DNA of 64,000 nt, taken from IMG/VR virus record IMGVR_UViG_3300037230_000036, positions 1-64,000 of that record. One strand, given 5' to 3'. The DNA comes from a virus. The notes under the pieces are model-generated. The model was not told where the DNA came from. It saw only the letters and a program-made list of their open reading frames with translations, and searched no databases. A program made the position numbers and the translations under genes. The number at the start of each line of letters is the position of its first letter. Positions within the stretch are counted from its first letter, which is position 1. Of this stretch, positions 5,635 to 45,663 are shown one piece after another.

Positions 5635-6195
5635 ATGGCCGATCCCATTCAGACGCAGCCGTTGATGAGCCAGGGGCGCGCTGTCCGCACCTCTCCCGCG
5701 CTACCGGTTCACGCCCGCCGCGGAGCCTTCATGCCGGAGCCCGGGGGCTTCCTTCTGGTGACGCTGCCGGGTGAGGCGGTCCGGGCAACGGTCGAGGAAA
5801 TCTTCGGCGACGACATTGTGACGGTGCGGCTCATCGGGACCGTCATGGCGAAGACCGGCCACGCCTACAAGACCAACGACCTCATCGCAGTCCGTCGCAT
5901 GGATCGCGAGCTCAAGGAGACCTGGGAGCCCGTCACCGACCGCGAGGGACGGGAGCAGGAGGAGCGGGAGCGCGCCGTTACCGCGGCCCGGAGGGATGCC
6001 GCGCAGGTTGCCGCAGCCCCGGAGCCGGTAGCCGTCGCTGCCCCGGTTGCGCCGGCACCAGACCTTGCGGACTCAGCGTCGTTTCCGCCGCGGCCAGTGG
6101 TTGCCGAGCCGGTGCGCGCGGTCGAGCCGGTTCCGGCGCTCGCTCCGCGGCGTGTGCTGGGGCCGCGGCGCAGCAAAATCGCGAGGTCGGCATGA
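5635..6195 (+). CDS. Hypothetical protein
   Basis: GGAGG RBS; coding-like codon bias. Confidence 0.6.
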   Translation: MADPIQTQPLMSQGRAVRTSPALPVHARRGAFMPEPGGFLLVTLPGEAVRATVEEIFGDDIVTVRLIGTVMAKTGHAYKTNDLIAVRRMDRELKETWEPVTDREGREQEERERAVTAARRDAAQVAAAPEPVAVAAPVAPAPDLADSASFPPRPVVAEPVRAVEPVPALAPRRVLGPRRSKIARSA

Positions 6196-6473
6196 GCGAG
6201 GGGGTGAATCCTGGCGGCTTTTGCGAAAAGCACGGCCACTCATTCGTCCTGTGCTGCAAAGATTGCGGCATGGAAGCCTCGGCTTTCCATGACGCGCTCG
6301 ACGACCAACTTTACCGCAACTCGGACTACGCGCATCTCGCCATCACCGACGAGAAGGGCGAGAGCCGTTGCATCAAGGTCCCGGTGTGGTTCGGCGGCGA
6401 GGGGGAACAGTTGAAGCCCTCGTCATTTGGCGTCTCGTCATTCAAACTCCTGCGGTTCGAGTCTGCGAGGTAA
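6192..6473 (+). CDS. Hypothetical Cys/His-rich protein
   Basis: ATGA overlap; CEKH...CCKDC. Confidence 0.5.
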   Translation: MSEGVNPGGFCEKHGHSFVLCCKDCGMEASAFHDALDDQLYRNSDYAHLAITDEKGESRCIKVPVWFGGEGEQLKPSSFGVSSFKLLRFESAR

Positions 6474-6476
6474 GCC

Positions 6477-7394
6477 ATGCCGTGGGCCACAGGTGATGAG
6501 TTCGCTGACCGGCACAACCACAAGCTGATGGGGCCTGCCGCGACGAAGGCCGCTCATATGGCGACGGCGATGGTCAGCTCCGGGGTCCCCGAGGGCGAGG
6601 CGATCGCCACGGCAAATAAGCATGGCAACGGCATGATGCACGATCAGCGCGCCCTCGGCGGCGGCCTCAAAAGCGAATCCTTCCACCTCGGCTCACCCGG
6701 CACGATGAAGCTCCCGACCGATCCGGGGTTCGGCAAGACGACCAGCCCGAGTCAGGGGTCGCCGTGGTGGACGCGGTCGGAGGCCCGCAGCGGGACACAT
6801 GCCGGGTTCCAGTACGGTGGCGATATCGGCATGGGTATGGGCCTCTCCTCGGCGGCCGGTGAGCAGCGGTATCCGGACCAGCAGTTCGACTCGGGGCTGA
6901 TCGGGGGCGGCGGGTTTGGTCGCACCGATCGGCTCCCTTTGAGCGTAGCTGCCGGGAGTCATGTTCTTCCGGCTGATGTCGTAAGCGGGCTCGGCCAGGG
7001 CAATACGCTCGCTGGAGCAAAGGTTCTTGAGGCATCGCTTGCGACCGGTCCCTGGGGTATGCGCATCCCACATGAGGATCGTGGGCATGGGCCGCCTCGC
7101 GCGCCCACGGTGCCATCGTTCCTGCAGCCGCAGGCCGGTGGCGGCGATCCGCACTCGACCTCGATCCTTGCGGCGGCTGGCGAAATTGTCGTCCCGAGCC
7201 GTGATGTTGTTGCCCTCGGCGAGCGTGCCATTGCGCAGGGTCTCGGCAAAAAGGGCCAGTCTGCTGCCGATGTCGGTCACGATCTCCTTGACCGGATGAT
7301 CCACAACGTCCGCCAGTTCAACATCGCGTGGCTTCAGAAGGCACCGCCGCCGAAAAGGTCTATGGGCGGCGCGGTCTTCGGGGCTGCGGTATAG
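6477..7394 (+). CDS. Putative internal virion protein
   Basis: GRTDRLP..GSHVLPADVVSGLGQGNTLAGA motif typical of podovirus internal proteins; GG motifs shared with 8039..12967. Confidence 0.6.
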   Translation: MPWATGDEFADRHNHKLMGPAATKAAHMATAMVSSGVPEGEAIATANKHGNGMMHDQRALGGGLKSESFHLGSPGTMKLPTDPGFGKTTSPSQGSPWWTRSEARSGTHAGFQYGGDIGMGMGLSSAAGEQRYPDQQFDSGLIGGGGFGRTDRLPLSVAAGSHVLPADVVSGLGQGNTLAGAKVLEASLATGPWGMRIPHEDRGHGPPRAPTVPSFLQPQAGGGDPHSTSILAAAGEIVVPSRDVVALGERAIAQGLGKKGQSAADVGHDLLDRMIHNVRQFNIAWLQKAPPPKRSMGGAVFGAAV

Positions 7395-7397
7395 GGC

Positions 7398-7979
7398 ATG
7401 GATGTGCTCACACAGAAGCCGAGGGCACCGCTGTCGGCCAAACCCGAGAACGTCCGCGCCGCCACCCCCGCCGACGAGGCCGCGCTGTACGACCTGCTGG
7501 TGCGCCTGCACCACCATAATTCCGATGGATGGAGCTATCCCTTCAACCCGGTGCTCGTCTCCCGGCAGATCGAGGTCGGCACGCGCCCGAACCCGGACAC
7601 CCGCACGGAACCCCGCGACAAACGCCTCGGCATGATCGGGATCATCGACGACCCGATGTATGAGGGGTTCGCCGGCACCGTGGGGATCTTCCTGCAGCAG
7701 CCGATGTGGTTCTCCGATGTGCTGGTGCCGACCGAGCTCTGGCTGTACGTCGAGCCGCGGCACCGCGGGCACGGCAACCACTACGAGGCCGATCTGATGG
7801 CCTTCGCGAAGTGGGTGCAGGCGACGATGAAGGCGAGCGCCGCGATGGCGGAGTACGGGGCGCCGTTCCCGTTGCTGACCGGGTTCATGCACCTCGGCGC
7901 CCGTTACCCCGCAATGCAGCGGCGCTGGCTACGGCTCTGCGGCGGGAAACAGGTCGGCTCGCTGTTCATGGTGGAATGA
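7398..7979 (+). CDS. GNAT-fold acetyltransferase-like morphogenesis protein
   Basis: VRAAT..D..AL, ELWLYVEPRHRG; lies before the ejection genes as in many podoviruses. Confidence 0.7.
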   Translation: MDVLTQKPRAPLSAKPENVRAATPADEAALYDLLVRLHHHNSDGWSYPFNPVLVSRQIEVGTRPNPDTRTEPRDKRLGMIGIIDDPMYEGFAGTVGIFLQQPMWFSDVLVPTELWLYVEPRHRGHGNHYEADLMAFAKWVQATMKASAAMAEYGAPFPLLTGFMHLGARYPAMQRRWLRLCGGKQVGSLFMVE

Positions 7980-8038
7980 CAGCCTGACCATTCTGCCGTA
8001 ATCTACACCGGAATTTCGGGAAATCCGGCGAGGGCGCG

Positions 8039-11000
8039 ATGAGCGGCGGCAGTTCCGGCGGTACGACCACCACCACGAGTCAGCCACCCGCCGCGGTCCA
8101 ACAGGCCTATGGCGAGCTGACCAATGCCGCCTTCAACCAGTCGCAGCAGCCTCTCAGTCAGTATTCCGGAAGCTTGGTTGCCGGTTTTACGCCGCAGCAG
8201 CAGCAGGGTTTCCAGACCGTCGCGAACTCGGCGGGCGTCGCCGACCCCTACATCAACTCGGCGGCGCAGGAGTTCGGGTCCGCGACGACCCCGCTCTACG
8301 ACACGGTGCAGAATTACGAGAGCCCCTACACCACCGATGTCACGAATGCGACCCAATCCCTCTTCAACCAGCAGAACGCGACCCAGCTGCAGCAGGTGCA
8401 GGGGCAGGCGACGCAGGCCGGAGCCTATGGCGGCGACCGCGAGGCTGTGGCGCAGGCGTTGACGGCGCAGCAGCAGCAGCTCGCCGAGGCTCCGACCCTC
8501 GCAAACACGGAGCAGCAGGGCTACCAGACCGCGCTTTCGGCGGACGAGGCACAGGGCTGGCTCGGTAGCCAAGCCGGGTTCGGGATGTCGTCGCTCGGCA
8601 CCGAGGCGCAGAACACCGCGCTCACCGGGGCCTCCGCGAACATCTCGGCCGGCGGGATGCAGCAGCAGCTCGCGCAGGAAGAGCTCAACGTCCCCTACGA
8701 GGAGTACACGCAGCAACAAGCCTACCCCTACCAGCAGCTTCAGTTCCTGGCCCCCATTGTCGAGGGCACCGGGTCGCTGTCGGGCGGCACTGGCACGACA
8801 ACGACGCCGGCCCCGAGCACGCTGTCGCAGCTCGGCGGTCTCGGGATGGCCGGGCTCGGGGCCTACGGGCTCTACAACAGCGCAACGAGCGGAGCGAGCA
8901 CGGGTGCCGGCGTCGCGGCCGACTATGCGGATGCTGATTTCGGCAGCAAGAAAGGTGGCCGGATCGGCTTCGCGGGCGGCGGCGCTCCGATGACGAACAA
9001 CGGGATGGTGCCGAACCTATCGATCTCGGTGATCCCGCCGACCCAGATGTTGCCGGCGAACCCGTCATCGCCGATGTCGCCGTTCGCGCCGGTGACGACG
9101 CAGAGCAGCACCGCCGCCAGTTCCGGCATCCTCGGCGATCTCGGTCCGCTGGTGCAGATCGCGGGCCTCGCATCGAAGTTCCTGAAATCTGGTGGTCGGA
9201 TCAGTTTCCAGGATGGTGGCACCACGCTTCTCACACCGCAGACGACGTCGACGACATACGGCCTCCCGGCGGTTCCGCAGATCAGCATCGGGCAGATCAT
9301 CCAGCCGGCGACCGGCCCTGCGATCAAGGGCAGCGGTCCGCCGCATCCGCCGGCCGCGGCGCCAGCCGATAACCCGGAAAAGGATGCCTCCGGGCTCGTC
9401 TCCGGGATGCAGTCGCTGGAGAAATCCGGCCTCCTCGGTTCCGGGAACACTGCGGGTTCGGGCAGCAAAGCCGGGGGCCGGCTCGGCTTCCAGGACGGTG
9501 GGGAGTCGCTGGGGCCGTCGACGGGGACGATCGAGGGGGCGTCACCGAACACGCAGAACTATTTCCAGCAGCTCATGCAGATGTCGACCGAGCAGCTGCA
9601 GGAGCTGTCGGTGCGGATGCCGCCGAGTTCGCCCTACGGGGCTATGGTACAGCGCGCGCTGGCATCGAAGCGGATGAACCCCAGCAGCGCGGCGACGCCA
9701 TCGCCGAGTTACGCGCAGGGGGCGCAGCAACCCTCGGGGGCCGGCACCGTTCCGGGGATCTCTGCGCCCGCCCAGGCGGCCACACCGACCGCCGGCACCA
9801 CGCTCGCGGACGGCGGGATAGCATCGGGCATCGCGGTGCCCTCGGTTTCGGAAAGTGAGATCGATCCGGTTCCGGTTGTCGATCACAGCGGCGATACCGT
9901 GAAGATCCGGTATCCGTCGGAAGGGAAGACCCTCGACCTCGGGCTCCCGTCGATTCGTCCGCGGTCGCCGGGGTTCGCCGCTGGGGGATCGCCGGGGCCG
10001 GCCAGCGCATCATCGACATTTACGGCGCCCCCGCTGTCCTCGTTCTACGCCAACCCGTCGGCGAGCGGATACCAGTGGAACCTGCCGAGCCCGACTGGGA
10101 CCGGGGCCAACGCGGCGTCACCCGCGAATTTCCCATCGACGACGCAAGCCGGGTCGCCGGCGGGGATGTCATTTCTACAGGCACCGAACGGGGTCGCTAT
10201 CCCGCAGCTCAACGCGAACACGTTGACCGGCGGTCCCGGCGTCGGCGGCAATCCAGCCGTCGCGGCCGGGGGTGGTCTTGCTGGCTGGAACCAGCCGTTG
10301 GCGCAGTTGCCAAACCCCGGCGGTTCCCCGGTGACGACGCCGCCGCTCAATTTCGGCACACCGAGCCTCAACGGTATTGCGGCGACTACGACGCCGGGGG
10401 CAACGACGATCGCCATTGATCCTGAAATTGAGGCCGTGGAAAATTCTCCAAGCGGGGGCAGCAAGCGCGGTGGCCGCACCGGGTTCCAGGATGGCGGCGA
10501 TGCGGCTGGGCTTGGGGTTGACGACGGCACGGATGCCGGGGGCGGAGCGGCTCTGTTCCCTCCCGACGACCAGGTGCAGACCGACGTCTTCGCGCTTCCC
10601 AGCATCGGCCTCGGGACCCCCGCCGGGAGTACGAATTTCGCACCGCCATCGGGGCCGAAGTTCGCCCCCTCGTTCGGAATGGGTGATCCGGCTTCGGCCC
10701 TCGTGTCCGGGGCCAAGACGCTGGCGAGCGAAGCGACGACGCCCGACATGCCGGCCGGGTCGCCGAATACCTACGAGCCGCCGTTTACGCCGAAGCCGCT
10801 ACCGCCGATGCCGTCCAAATCGTCGGTGCCCGCCGCTGCGGCACCGGATACGACGGCACCGGATACGACGAAGGACGGGATGGTGTCCGGGTTGCCGAAG
10901 CCAGGCGCGGCTCCCGCGCCGGACCTCTTTGCGCCCGCAGCCGGGGATGCCGGGCTTGGTCTCCGCGACACCGGCTCGCCGGCAACATCAGCCGGTCCAG

Positions 11001-37731: not shown

Positions 37732-39333
37732 CTATTCCGCCGCCTCCCACGCCGCGACGTGCTGCCACTGTCGCTCGATCGCCGTATTGGCCAGCACTCC
37801 CTCGTTCGCTCCGGCTTCTCGCTGGTACTGCTGGATCAGATCCGCGTTACGCCCGAGCAGGCGCGCGAGGTCGGCGGTGTTTTGCGCGGTCTTGAGCCGA
37901 GGCAGAAACTGCGCCGCGTACCAGGCGGACCAGTTCGCGCGGCCGGCGTGGCGGGTGGGCTCCAGGCGCAGGCTCTCCCGGTCGTACCAGTCGCTGCGGT
38001 GGGGACGCTGCGGGGGCGCCACAGCGCGGGGAGCCGAGGCGGGCGTTGGAGCAAGCGGCAACTCGGCTTCGCGGGCTGGTGCGGCTGGCGCCGGGCTTCC
38101 ACCGGCCTCCCCGTGCGATACCGGGTTCGTCAGCAAGTCTGGTGCTGTGCGTGGCCGCTCGTCCTCCGCAGGGACGTACTGCCGGGCATTGGTCTCACTA
38201 AAGGTTCCAGGCGGATCATCGACGGGTTCGCCATCGGCTGTCTCCCCGCGTTTTCCCTTCGGTTCATCGGCCTCTGCCCGCTCTGGGATGGGGTCGGCCG
38301 GGGGCGGAGGGGAGCCCGCTGATCCCGGCCGCTGCACCGGGTCGCCCGGCGGCAGCTTGTGCGCGAAGGCTTCCTCGACCGCGCGGACGTGATCGGGGAA
38401 CTCGCCGCGATATTGTGACAGGAGGTCGGCGCTGGCGTCGCGCATCCGCGCCACGGACTCCGGTCGACCATCCTCGATGTTGTGCATCATCCGGCCGCGC
38501 CATTCCTCGATCGTGCCGAGCTCGATCTGCTTGGTGCCGGTGTCGATCACAAATTTGCGATGGTCGAGATCGGTGGCAGTCGGGGCGCCGGCGCGTTCGT
38601 CCGGGGCTGGGGACGCCATGCCCTCAATCACCACGCCGCGCATCGGATCGATGTAGCTGTGTTTGCCGCGCTCCTCGTGGGCCTCTTCCATGACGGCGGC
38701 GTTGACCATCAGGTTAACCGGCATGTCGCGGGCGAGGCGACGGCGCGGCGTCTTCTCGCACATTGCCGGGAAACCAATCTCCGCGTCGTTCCACGGCGAA
38801 TCGGATTTCTTCGCGCCAGGGCTGCGGCCTTTGACGAACATCAGCTCGTCGATGTCCATGACGCGGACAATGCTGCTGTGGCCGGGCCGGCTCGCGGTGG
38901 CCCACGCGCCGAGGATGCGCCGGCCGCGACCTGCGCCGAGTTCCGGCTTGTGGTGCACGTAGGCAGTGCTGCCGAGCTCGAAATCGAATTGATCGCCTTC
39001 CCGCACGACGGCGCCATTGATCGTGAAGCCGGATCGGCCCGCGAGGGTCGCGTAGCCGCGGTAGCCGATTACAGGCTGAGCCTTCCCGGCGAAGGGGATC
39101 ATGTAGAACTGGCCGAGCGCCCCATCGGCCTCGAGCCCGAGGACGGCCGCCGTCATCGCCGCCTGGATGATCGATGGCACCGAGCAGTTCTGCAGGCTCG
39201 GCGTCTTCTCCAGCGAGACGAGGATCGTGCGTAGCAGCTTTTCGGGGGCGAGCCCGCTACCCCTCAGAGCCTCGGCAAAATGGGGCATCAGCGGGGTAAG
39301 CTGCCGTTCGATGACGGCGAGTTCCTGGGGCAT
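37732..39333 (-). CDS. recT: RecT-family single-strand annealing protein with long C-terminal extension
   Basis: LQNCSVPSI..A.M.AA.LGL, YMIPF, IGYRG...LA.RSG, VREGD.F, SPW..F.AM..KT..RRL. Confidence 0.88.
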   Translation of the reverse strand: MPQELAVIERQLTPLMPHFAEALRGSGLAPEKLLRTILVSLEKTPSLQNCSVPSIIQAAMTAAVLGLEADGALGQFYMIPFAGKAQPVIGYRGYATLAGRSGFTINGAVVREGDQFDFELGSTAYVHHKPELGAGRGRRILGAWATASRPGHSSIVRVMDIDELMFVKGRSPGAKKSDSPWNDAEIGFPAMCEKTPRRRLARDMPVNLMVNAAVMEEAHEERGKHSYIDPMRGVVIEGMASPAPDERAGAPTATDLDHRKFVIDTGTKQIELGTIEEWRGRMMHNIEDGRPESVARMRDASADLLSQYRGEFPDHVRAVEEAFAHKLPPGDPVQRPGSAGSPPPPADPIPERAEADEPKGKRGETADGEPVDDPPGTFSETNARQYVPAEDERPRTAPDLLTNPVSHGEAGGSPAPAAPAREAELPLAPTPASAPRAVAPPQRPHRSDWYDRESLRLEPTRHAGRANWSAWYAAQFLPRLKTAQNTADLARLLGRNADLIQQYQREAGANEGVLANTAIERQWQHVAAWEAAE

Positions 39334-39559
39334 CAGTCGGATTCTCCCGCGCGGACGATTTTTGAAAATGACGCAAACTCTCCCCGCTTTTCCATGAGTT
39401 TCATTCCATGAGGAAAGTTGAAATTGCAGCAGATTGCGCCACCGTGAACCGTATACGACCTGCGCCATGTCCAGCACGCCGTTATCTGCCATAGTCGCGC
39501 TACAAGCCGGTCACCTTCGCATAGGTCGCTGTCGTGGATTTCGGCCATGAGAATCCGCC

Positions 39560-41066: not shown

Positions 41067-42026
41067 CTACGCCCCCAGGTAGTCGGCAGGATCGCGTGTC
41101 GCCTTGGCGGTATCCGCCACGGGCGCGCTGTTCTCCTCGACGATCTCGATGTTGATCCGGGTCGACGCCTTCCGCGTGACCTTCGGTTCGAGGTGCGGTT
41201 CGCACATCCCGGCGGCGACCTCGGTCCGCTTGATGAACGCGGTGAAGCCATCGGTCTTGAGGATGCCCGCCGGCCCGGCGCGACCCAGCAGTTTCGCCTT
41301 CATCTGCTCCGCCAGTTTCTTCGCGAAGGACTCATCGCTCTTGGCTCTGGCGTACTGCCGCAGCACCAGCGACATTTCCTCGTCGCCGAACGCCTCGACG
41401 ATCGACGCCTTCTCGCTGAGCGGGTAGAGCGCGGCGAGCATCGGCAGCTCGAGCGGCGACCCCAGCGGGTCCGGCTCCTTCCCGGTCTTCAGGCTGTCGA
41501 AGAACGATGCCGCCTCGTCGCGCAGCCGCTCCTGCATCTCGCGGTTAGGCTCCCGCTCCAGGACGCGGAGGTCGTTGCCGCCGATCAGCACCGCGATCAT
41601 CCCGAGCTCGGCCTTGTCGACCATGACTTGCGTCTGCACCTGGATCTCGACGTGCATCGCGGCGGCGGTTTCGGTCCAGGTCTGTTTCCAGCGCAACCAA
41701 TCGACGCACTTCGCCTCGACAATGACCTTTCCTCTGTCCGGCATCACCATCCGGCCGTCGACCGTCGCGCCGAGGAGCCCGTCGCGGACATACTCGTCGG
41801 CGTCGTTGTGCTGCATCTCCAGCCGGTACTGCTTGGCGACGGCTTCGAGGATCGGGTGCTGTAGGGCCGTGCCCCAGTCGATCCGGTCGTCGGCGTCTGG
41901 CTCGATCATGGAGAGGTCGCGCTTGCGGAAGCAGTGGAACAGCATCCACCTGGTGCAATATGGACTCCGGTCGAAGAGGGCCGGCGCTTGACTGGCGCTG
42001 ACGGTCTCAAAGCTCTTATCGGGCAT
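41067..42026 (-). CDS. YqaJ / lambda-exonuclease-family recombination nuclease
   Basis: SASQ..AL...SPY, WG..L...I, ATVDG, VEAK, QVQ.Q. Confidence 0.85.
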   Translation of the reverse strand: MPDKSFETVSASQAPALFDRSPYCTRWMLFHCFRKRDLSMIEPDADDRIDWGTALQHPILEAVAKQYRLEMQHNDADEYVRDGLLGATVDGRMVMPDRGKVIVEAKCVDWLRWKQTWTETAAAMHVEIQVQTQVMVDKAELGMIAVLIGGNDLRVLEREPNREMQERLRDEAASFFDSLKTGKEPDPLGSPLELPMLAALYPLSEKASIVEAFGDEEMSLVLRQYARAKSDESFAKKLAEQMKAKLLGRAGPAGILKTDGFTAFIKRTEVAAGMCEPHLEPKVTRKASTRINIEIVEENSAPVADTAKATRDPADYLGA

Positions 42027-43320: not shown

Positions 43321-43740
43321 TCATTCCGGCGCACTCTCCACGCGCACGTAGCCGCCGATGAGCCCGGCCCCGGCCAGATGCGGCGCGGCCTTCCCGGCTT
43401 CGACGAGCCGCTTCAGCGCGGCCTCGATCTGCCCCGGCTTGACGTTGCCGATCTTCTCGACCAGCGCATCCAGCGACTGCGGCTCGGTGGTCAGGCGGTC
43501 CAGCGTCGCGGCTTCGAGGTTCCGGCGCTGGCGACTCGGCGCGTCGTGGCCGTTGGGCGCGGGCGAGCCGGCGTCCTCGCGCATGGCCTCGACGGCGCGA
43601 TCGTGCGCAGCAATCGCGGTTCGCGCGACGTCAATGCTGGACTCGGCATCGGCCAAAATCAGCTTTGCCCGCTGGTAAGCCTCTACCGCGTGCTGTTGCC
43701 TGCCCAGCAGTTCGGCGCGGATATCGTCGATCTTGCTCAT
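43321..43740 (-). CDS. Coiled-coil plus winged-helix hypothetical protein
   Basis: GGAGAGAG RBS; ATGA overlap. Confidence 0.55.
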   Translation of the reverse strand: MSKIDDIRAELLGRQQHAVEAYQRAKLILADAESSIDVARTAIAAHDRAVEAMREDAGSPAPNGHDAPSRQRRNLEAATLDRLTTEPQSLDALVEKIGNVKPGQIEAALKRLVEAGKAAPHLAGAGLIGGYVRVESAPE

Positions 43741-44996
43741 GCTGTTTCTCTCTCCGGTATAAGTGCGAAAAATCTGCGGAGGCGCGGAGCCTGGCGACGC
43801 CACACCATGTCTTCGATCTCTCGGCCGTAGTGGTTGCCATAGGCGCGCTCATAGGCCTTTCGCATCTGATCTTGGCGCGTCATGTCGTACCCAGGCTGGC
43901 GTCGCGCGAAGAAAGGACGCCCTGCGGCGACCGTCGCCGGTGCCCTTCCGGTTAGCGCCGGATGCGCCGTTCCAGCGGTGGTCATGTTGAATAGGTTTCC
44001 CGTGTTGAGAAGTTCGCCAGCATTCCCCGCCTCGACGTGGAGCGCGATGGCGACCAACTGGTCGAGCGGCGGCGTCTCGTCAAAATAGAGGCAGAGATCG
44101 GCGAGCTTCTCGCCGCGGATCGCGGTCAGCCCGACGCGGATCCCACTATGCCCCAGCGCCGTCACGTTTTCCGACCGCACCTGGAAAATAAGATCGTTCG
44201 TCGTCGGGATCGCGACAGTCTCGCCGCGAACAAATGCCTGCACCGGCGCGGGACCGAGGATCTGCGCCGCCGTTGTCGCCGATCGCGCAAGGCGCTTCCG
44301 GTTGTCGCGGATCATGCGGCGCAGCGGCTGCCCGATTCGTTTCGCTTCCTGCTCGATGAGGAATTGGTTCAGCGCCTCCGTGCGGCGCCGGCCGCGCTCT
44401 TCATCCGCAGAGGTGAAGAGCGCGTCGAGCAGTTTCACTTCGTCCGGGTGCGCCGGCCACGGCAGCGAGCAGATACCCTTCGCGAGGCGCGCATGGTGGC
44501 CAACCGCGCGGCCGGGATCGGTGCGGACGTAGCGGCGGATTGCGGCTGGCGACCGGAGCCGACGCAGCACGCGGGGCCTCGGGCTGCCATCGGCGCGGAG
44601 GCGGATGTCGCTGCCACGGCGCCAGTGTTCCAGCGCCCCGCCGATCGTCGAATCGTCGTAGTTCCAGGCGGCCAGGACCTCGGCGAGTTCGTGGATACGA
44701 TAGCGTTCGCGGATAAGGGCTGCCGCCACAAAGGCACGCTGATGAGGCGCATCGAGTTCCGTAACGATCGCCCGGGCATAGTCGCAGAGGCCGAAACACA
44801 TTGCTTGGCGTCTACCGAGGTGCGTGTCGCTGTAGTCGCCATTGCGTTTAGGGCGCTCGACCAGATTGTCGATGACCCCTCGGTCGCCCAGCAGGTTGAG
44901 TGCGGCGTGGGACAGGCCGTCGAGCTCGCCGTACTCCACCGCCCCATCAAGGACGTATTGGATGTCGGGGGGAAGCGGCGACGGCCTGATCTGCAT
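43737..44996 (-). CDS. Hypothetical protein with C-terminal LCLY...PPLDQ...L....GN domain
   Basis: 419 aa; coupled by TGATG to the upstream GG-ending gene. Confidence 0.65.
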   Translation of the reverse strand: MQIRPSPLPPDIQYVLDGAVEYGELDGLSHAALNLLGDRGVIDNLVERPKRNGDYSDTHLGRRQAMCFGLCDYARAIVTELDAPHQRAFVAAALIRERYRIHELAEVLAAWNYDDSTIGGALEHWRRGSDIRLRADGSPRPRVLRRLRSPAAIRRYVRTDPGRAVGHHARLAKGICSLPWPAHPDEVKLLDALFTSADEERGRRRTEALNQFLIEQEAKRIGQPLRRMIRDNRKRLARSATTAAQILGPAPVQAFVRGETVAIPTTNDLIFQVRSENVTALGHSGIRVGLTAIRGEKLADLCLYFDETPPLDQLVAIALHVEAGNAGELLNTGNLFNMTTAGTAHPALTGRAPATVAAGRPFFARRQPGYDMTRQDQMRKAYERAYGNHYGREIEDMVWRRQAPRLRRFFALIPERETA

Positions 44997-45382
44997 CAGC
45001 CGCCCCTGGCAGGACGTACCGCGACGGTTGCGGGCGATGCGACGATCTCTTGGGCATTGTGCGCGATGCGGCCTTGGCGCTTGCGTGGCGCCTCCGCAGT
45101 CTCGTTGTCGGTCTTGACGACTGTCACGTCGCCAATCCCGACAAGTGCGGCGAAATCTTTATCCGCCATCGCGAGGGCCCGCCGCTCGCGCACTTCAGCA
45201 ACGTCCTGCAGCGGCACGCGCCGCGGCGGGGCAAGACCGCCCGCGACCGGTTCGAGGAGGAAGAAGACGACGCCCTCGGCCAGCTTCTTTTCGATCACCG
45301 GCAAAACCGCAGCATCGCTCGACTCGTCCCAGATCAGAGTGGTATCGCCGGTGCGGTCAAGCATCGTGAGTGAGCGTTGCAT
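44996..45382 (-). CDS. Small protein ending in -PARGG
   Basis: LD.TGDT.L.W...K...G..FF; C-terminal diglycine. Confidence 0.7.
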   Translation of the reverse strand: MQRSLTMLDRTGDTTLIWDESSDAAVLPVIEKKLAEGVVFFLLEPVAGGLAPPRRVPLQDVAEVRERRALAMADKDFAALVGIGDVTVVKTDNETAEAPRKRQGRIAHNAQEIVASPATVAVRPARGG

Positions 45383-45383
45383 C

Positions 45384-45548
45384 TTATCTTGCCCCTTTGC
45401 GGTCGAGTTCGTCTTCCAGCCGGACGATCTGCTGCGTGATCGGGCCGCGCCGCTTGTCGTTCATCGGCAGAGATTTCAGCTTCGCACGGAGGTCCGCCAG
45501 CGCTTCGGAAAGGCTGCGGGGTTCGTGCCGGACAAGCGGGCTTAGCAT
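45384..45548 (-). CDS. Small hypothetical protein, first gene of the leftward operon
   Basis: AGGAG RBS; 54 aa; not in the ORF track. Confidence 0.55.
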   Translation of the reverse strand: MLSPLVRHEPRSLSEALADLRAKLKSLPMNDKRRGPITQQIVRLEDELDRKGAR

Positions 45549-45573
45549 CGTGGTTCTCCTAAATTCTCACTTC

Positions 45574-45654
45574 ATAGTGGGTATTCTCGGATGGGAAGGC
45601 AAGAAATAAATTATCACCACCAGGCTTGAGTTTTTCTGAAAGCGCGCCCATCGT
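45574..45654. promoter_or_regulatory. Back-to-back sigma70-type promoters
   Basis: Minus: TTGCCT-17-CACTAT (45602..45574); plus: TTGAGT-17-CATCGT (45626..45654); AT-rich spacer. Confidence 0.6.
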
Positions 45655-45663
45655 TATGAAACT

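Follow-up and report, generated by a model that had tools for sequence, protein, structure and literature searches.

A tightly coupled phage gene pair with an invariant C-terminal glycine and an invariant cysteine, a candidate ubiquitin-like module without an activating enzyme

Ubiquitin-like conjugation in bacteria has been shown only recently, and so far on the side of defence. Bil (BilABCD), Bub (PMC10557695, PMC11601596) and the type II cyclic oligonucleotide-based antiphage signalling system (CBASS) with Cap2 and Cap3 (PMC10097602) are cellular defence operons in which an E1 adenylating enzyme and a peptidase are never missing and the ubiquitin-like protein (Ubl) is often made as a precursor. 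The gene pair described here is instead found in a phage. It lies in a 64,000-nucleotide stretch (the window) that comprises bases 1-64000 of the complete 91,268-bp virus record IMGVR_UViG_3300037230_000036, a genome with direct terminal repeats and a G+C content of about 65%. Like the defence operons, the pair sets a small protein with a potentially reactive C-terminal glycine (128 residues) beside a protein with a catalytic-looking nucleophile (419 residues, hereafter the partner), and it does so in a setting of conflict between phage and bacterium. Unlike them, it is phage-borne, has no E1 or prokaryotic JAB (Prok-JAB) peptidase, encodes the small protein in its mature form and matches no known family. 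The operon make-up of Bil, Bub and type II CBASS (E1, E2, Ubl or CD-NTase, and peptidase) is not found here, and PADLOC, like PHROGs and NCBIfam, returns no match for either protein.

Two further arrangements invite comparison. ThiS, MoaD and Urm1, which work with E1 enzymes of the ThiF, MoeB or Uba4 type (PMC1779556, PMC9574740), end in a free Gly-Gly as the small protein does, and it might in principle make use of an E1-like enzyme of the cell. The small protein differs in that none of 135 family members matches ThiS or MoaD and in its larger size of about 120 residues, with a long insert before the tail; the partner, a helical protein of 400-470 residues and unmatched fold, is unlike a synthase or an E1. 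Among phages, the ubiquitin-like tail assembly protein I of lambda and T1 and its neighbour, the JAB and NlpC/P60 protein K (PMC1779556), make up a comparable pair, with a conserved C-terminal glycine in the small domain and a partner next to it. That arrangement belongs to a tail-assembly cluster, carries a further domain after the ubiquitin-like one and has a peptidase as partner, whereas the pair studied here occurs in early or accessory regions, ends at the GG and is accompanied by no JAB that could be found. Comparative studies of prokaryotic Ubl systems (PMC1779556) and of jumbo phages (PMC7824862), and a full-text literature search, yielded no description of the two families. The pair thus appears to be an undescribed, tightly coupled gene pair carried by many phages, with a large and, as predicted, mostly helical partner.

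The small protein ends TVAVRPARGG, and its gene closes with the codons GGC GGC TGA. A word-based search finds only four close relatives; a profile search of 1.84 billion representatives recovers 427, clustered at 50% identity, at E<=0.001 and 338 at E<=1e-10. With few exceptions they have 115-145 residues, and the match reaches their last residue. Among the best 149 of the 427 representatives, 136 (91%) end in GG and 10 in AG or SG, and two of the remaining three (P0042 and P0141) look like frameshifted reads. G12, W18, F40 and G128 are invariant in an alignment of 135 sequences and D13, G37, D74 and G127 nearly so; position 127 is G, A or S in 134 of them. A shared GG terminus at this frequency is far beyond chance, since only 4 ORFs (open reading frames) of at least 50 residues in the whole 91-kb genome end in GG. 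Ubl-type proteins such as Atg8, UFM1 and Urm1 show the same pattern, in which the last glycine alone is conserved and G, A or S precedes it. The tail consensus, TVAVRPxRGG, also resembles Ubl tails, and the RGG ending of the small protein recurs in 57 of the 149 representatives. Because R3, L5 and T6 are conserved, the start is placed at the ATG at 45382 and not at the downstream Met7 used by database entry P0001. Conservation of this kind indicates that the small protein needs a free C-terminal glycine.

Some other interpretations of the small protein were tried and set aside. In a double-glycine leader peptide served by a C39 peptidase, a core peptide would follow the glycines; here the stop codon comes directly after them, as it does in 136 of the 149 representatives. 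A Pfam match to the ManC beta-helix (20.5 bits, under the cut-off, in 1 of 135 members) is attributed to chance. The metagenomic protein P0042 (568 residues), which might be taken for a natural fusion of the small protein and the partner, contains the first 80 or so residues of the former, then about 40 unrelated residues, then the full partner, and reads as a frameshift artefact.

Wherever both genes are visible, which is the case at 14 loci (the window, L001-L006, L013, L014, L017, L021, L022, L026 and L027), the small gene is upstream of the partner gene on the same strand. The junction is tight in 12 of these, with a 1-4 nt overlap or a gap of up to 4 nt. In the window it reads GGCGGCTGATGCAGA, where a single A is common to the TGA stop of the small gene and the ATG of the partner. 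At L021 about 350 nt separate the genes, and at L014, a viral contig, an ORF of 115 residues (6369-6716, beginning MRPKVYTLCGSSRF...) is inserted exactly between them; the pair therefore tolerates separation. The sequence-only reading of this stretch had described the VRPARGG terminus and the TGATG overlap, both of which are evident in the sequence, and had expected the terminal GG to be conserved and the two genes to be linked elsewhere, as they prove to be.

The partner contains four cysteines (67, 71, 176 and 302). Cys302, in LADLCLYFDETPPLDQLVAIALHVEAGN, is the sole cysteine of the C-terminal half, which agrees with the lone C-terminal cysteine first noted there, and it is conserved as anticipated. 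An alignment of 25 sequences from the protein database and the fetched loci (14-61% identity to the window protein; loci of 36-67% G+C) shows F255, G258, C302, D312, G324 and N334 to be invariant and P309 and Q313 nearly so. The invariant Asp and Asn follow Cys302 by 10 and 32 residues, and a single core domain (residues 225-345) holds all six invariant positions. A jumbo-phage homologue aligns with the partner solely over residues 227-340 (hhalign probability 98.2, E 3.8e-14). The AlphaFold2 model built on the 25-sequence alignment is confident, with a mean predicted local distance difference test score (pLDDT) of 87.2 and a predicted template modelling score of 0.69. In it, a four-helix bundle at the N terminus (about 4-81) is followed by long helices (83-256), then by an alpha/beta core and finally by a long C-terminal helix (372-411). 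In the modelled core, Cys302 ends the last of four strands (260-264, 269-275, 286-292 and 297-302), and helices 310-322 (starting near D312) and 326-332 precede a short strand at 334-336 (N334). Taken together, the alignment and the model indicate that the partner needs one cysteine, which closes a beta-strand of the conserved alpha/beta core.

A conserved cysteine is a trait of E2 enzymes, and the predicted order of secondary-structure elements in the core is compatible with an E2 or ubiquitin-conjugating (UBC) fold. However, no convincing E2/UBC or other solved fold was seen for the partner model: Foldseek against the PDB gives no match at E<=0.001, and a second structural search adds nothing convincing. 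Against BFVD, the sole matches are the homologue from Agrobacterium phage Atu_ph07 and one viral protein of 268 residues. An alternative is suggested by Cys302, Asp312, Asn334 and the mostly conserved His320, which are readable as a protease-like set. The partner might then cleave after Gly-Gly, as a cysteine peptidase or deconjugase, with the small protein as its substrate mimic, inhibitor or product. Among the 25 sequences, however, a Cys-His pair is not invariant, as position 320 holds Met instead of His in the low-G+C group, Glu in L017 and Ala in L021. The small protein is also encoded already ending in GG, and therefore needs no processing. No protease fold was seen in the fold searches, which gave no convincing match of any kind. 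We regard a peptidase as very improbable.

Acyl transfer from the glycine carboxylate to the cysteine thiol is the simplest chemistry that joins the facts about the pair. It is possible, and we rank this view first though we hold it only tentatively, that the pair comprises a ubiquitin-like tag and the protein onto whose cysteine it is loaded after activation by a host enzyme. The two genes would form a self-contained module specific to phages, whose two products are made early and at similar levels and in which the small protein acts as a ubiquitin-like modifier. A host enzyme of the ThiF/MoeB type would adenylate its C-terminal glycine, since the phages carry no such enzyme. Cys302 of the partner, in the role of an E2-like carrier, would next accept the activated small protein in a thioester bond and hand it on to lysines in host or phage proteins while the cell is being taken over. 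We infer the activation step, the thioester and the target; acyl transfer to a cysteine needs prior activation, for which host ThiF/MoeB-type enzymes, universal among cells, are the only candidates. The wider proposal is that phages of very different hosts carry a minimal, E1-less form of ubiquitin-like conjugation. A housekeeping ThiF/MoeB-type enzyme of the host, or new chemistry, would load a Gly-Gly modifier onto the cysteine of a carrier of new fold, for early attachment to host or phage proteins. This proposal seems doubtful and leans towards the unlikely.

The free C-terminal glycine of Ubl, ThiS and MoaD proteins is present in the small protein, and the cognate E1 of the ThiF family, which is encoded alongside in those systems, is not. 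Neither ThiF/E1 (PF00899) nor Prok-JAB (PF14464) occurs in this genome, as the sequence-only reading had it for the E1, or in five further genomes of carrier phages. Of these six genomes, five are at least 90% complete and three are complete jumbo phages of 455-490 kb. By contrast, ThiF-like genes were detected in all 14 control cellular genomes. ThiF is not among the recurrent neighbour families of the pair. A JAB-like domain had been ascribed to the genome at the outset, and this is not confirmed, as neither PF14464 nor PF01398 has a match anywhere in it at E<=1.

It may be that the relevant chemistry is that of sulfur. The small protein could be thiocarboxylated at its C terminus, as ThiS, MoaD and TtuB are, with the partner cysteine as a persulfide or sulfur acceptor in the thiolation of a nucleic acid or cofactor. 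The terminal GG and the single invariant cysteine of the partner would suit such a role, as would a neighbourhood rich in genes of DNA and RNA metabolism and modification (Dam, N6_N4 methylases, Thg1). The 25 neighbour families listed nevertheless include no ThiF, rhodanese, PP-loop or Fe-S enzyme. The lack of any ThiS or MoaD match in 135 members also speaks against a sulfur carrier, as does the partner itself, which has no recognisable nucleotide-binding motif and whose conserved residues are confined to a small core. We therefore find this explanation improbable.

Several results weigh against a ubiquitin-like tag. In Pfam, none of 135 small and none of 25 large members matches any Ubl, E2, E1 or peptidase/deubiquitinase (DUB) family, and alignment of the small-protein profile with ubiquitin by hhalign gives no signal (probability 0.2). 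The AlphaFold2 model of the small protein is poor (pLDDT 52.6, from five close sequences), its beta-grasp matches are weak and come from this low-confidence model, and the hints of fold rank no higher than unrelated entries. The 25 partners have no conserved His-Pro-Asn (HPN-type) motif upstream of Cys302. Tight translational coupling suggests a 1:1 complex over an enzyme with an abundant tag, and the acceptance of the small protein by a host E1-like enzyme is a supposition. Sequences in the PDB offer no meaningful match for either protein, and none at E<=10 for the small one. In the ESM Atlas, the models are poor for both and lead to no usable look-alikes. The reading as a tagging or ligase system, or as a decoy, with which this analysis began is thus supported in part: the glycine, the cysteine and the linkage agree with it, whereas no known family, convincing E2 fold or JAB domain was found. 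Conjugation or decoy function remains a plausible interpretation.

A second pair with a GG terminus and a cysteine-bearing partner is found among head-region genes of the same phage, outside the window (74680-75828, L009:10680-11828). It consists of a 74-residue protein (74680-74904) that ends MLMVPALQGG and, 3 nt later, a 306-residue partner containing LCAIP...PVEDILIAQLL...AN. The order is the same as in the studied pair, small GG protein and then cysteine partner, and no E1 is present; the studied small protein is longer (about 120 residues against 74) and its partner has a large extra helical scaffold. By eye, and anecdotally, the two partners share a spacing of motifs, with a cysteine, an acidic residue and then 22 residues to an asparagine. 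That the second pair is a diverged copy of the first was considered and dropped, as neither hhalign nor hidden Markov model searches of all 1303 ORFs detect it. The two are best called analogous and not demonstrably homologous, because profiles of the studied pair miss the second. Judged as an analogy, a second GG/Cys pair in one genome would count in favour of a tag.

The distribution of the pair has a bearing on a rather doubtful alternative in which no covalent bond forms at all. The two proteins could be subunits of an early protein in which the GG tail docks into the partner or into a host enzyme, or a decoy or inhibitor of host Ubl defences. As a decoy, the GG tail would occupy a host E1 and the cysteine partner would trap or drain the thioester (of type II CBASS Cap2, Bil or Bub). 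The overlap or minimal spacing at 12 of 14 loci suits equimolar subunits. The pair is also restricted to phages, the small gene being found in none of 400 other Pseudomonadota genomes, and the module is essentially phage-borne. It is located in accessory or early regions beside recombination, methylase and HerA-like genes, and no constant third partner occurs among 144 neighbouring ORFs of the 14 loci. No E1 or DUB was found in the carrier phages, and Ubl-based antiphage systems are known in hosts (PMC10557695, PMC11601596). On the other hand, an invariant last glycine preceded by G, A or S in the 135-sequence alignment is stricter than a docking peptide usually needs, and a pure decoy leaves the invariant cysteine without a reason. 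Host Bil and type II CBASS are moreover sporadic, whereas the phages that carry the pair span very different hosts.

Carriers include Bradyrhizobium prophages, a Panacagrimonas metagenome-assembled genome and three contigs of 455-490 kb. Few loci came out of pattern-limited scans of viral contigs, metagenomes and genomes. A tblastn search of 50,697 phage records found only two carriers, both of them cultured jumbo phages: Agrobacterium phage Atu_ph07 (AUZ95013, AUZ95012) and Sinorhizobium phage Phosso (XYS97503, XYS97502). In both, the two genes are labelled 'hypothetical'. The presence of the pair in two cultured phages makes it directly testable. If a tag is indeed attached, trypsin would leave the standard Lys-epsilon-GG remnant of ubiquitin proteomics, because the tail ends R-G-G. 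A widespread phage module in which neither the free C-terminal glycine nor the cysteine of the partner varies would suggest that phages, too, tag proteins, or that they jam host tagging. If the two proteins do form a tagging system, it would be a viral one whose components show no sequence kinship with the Ubl and E2 families known so far. The module lacks an activating enzyme, and the confident predicted structure of the partner matches no solved fold. Even if the chemistry differs, two protein families, the small one of at least 427 clusters, would gain a first functional handle.

Four tightly coupled ORFs form a leftward string in the window, and the pair makes up its genes 2 and 3 (Table 1). 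The string adjoins genes for a helix-turn-helix (HTH) regulator, a RecE-like exonuclease and a RecT-domain protein, and because of these neighbours the pair is called early; an early or accessory role is a reasonable inference from gene position. The placement near the start of a leftward early operon, proposed from the sequence, stands as regards the string, and its 'early' part comes from position. Neither the 54-residue ORF that begins the string nor the 139-residue ORF that ends it is seen as a conserved neighbour of the pair at other loci, and no sigma-70-like promoter was found in the intergenic gap.

Table 1. Features of the gene pair and its immediate surroundings in the window (positions are those of the 64,000-nucleotide stretch)
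Feature	Position	Strand	Remarks
Small gene	44996..45382	-	128 aa; N-terminal globular part, variable middle, conserved tail TVAVRPxRGG
Gly127-Gly128 codons (GGC GGC), stop directly after	44999..45004	-	G128 invariant in the 135-sequence alignment
TGATG stop/start overlap of small gene and partner, couples translation	44994..44998	-	From the sequence; tight junction also in other loci
Partner gene	43737..44996	-	419 aa; ORF, AlphaFold2 model and alignment
Conserved core of partner, residues 225-345	43962..44324	-	Carries all invariant residues
Codon of invariant Cys302 (TGC)	44091..44093	-	C-terminal end of core strand 4
54-aa ORF, first of leftward string	45384..45548	-	Stop 1 nt before the small-gene ATG
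139-aa ORF, ATG overlaps partner TGA (ATGA)	43321..43740	-	C-terminal part winged-helix-like; weak DUF5805 match
115-nt intergenic gap between leftward string and rightward genes	45549..45663	.	Presumed promoter region

The RecT-domain protein of this region (37735-39492, minus strand) has 586 residues, which is unusually long for RecT, and its RecT domain is confined to residues 85-277. The RecE-like exonuclease is located beside it, at 41070-42026. At the 14 loci, the scan of neighbouring ORFs found four RNase_T-type exonucleases, four DUF87/HerA-like ATPases, three integrases and three Dam methylases. All four of the ATPases belong to Bradyrhizobium-type prophages. A P-loop protein of this DUF87/HerA-like type (572-588 residues, with GKTGSGKTS) immediately precedes the pair at L001-L004 (about 5742-7633), towards the prophage end that carries the integrase, and does not occur at the other loci. 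In one of these Bradyrhizobium prophages (L004:8001-9698) the partner reads through into the next gene to give a protein of 565 residues. In its close relative L002 the partner (8001-9251) and the next gene (9275-9727) are separate ORFs, and the read-through in L004 may be either a frameshift or a true fusion.

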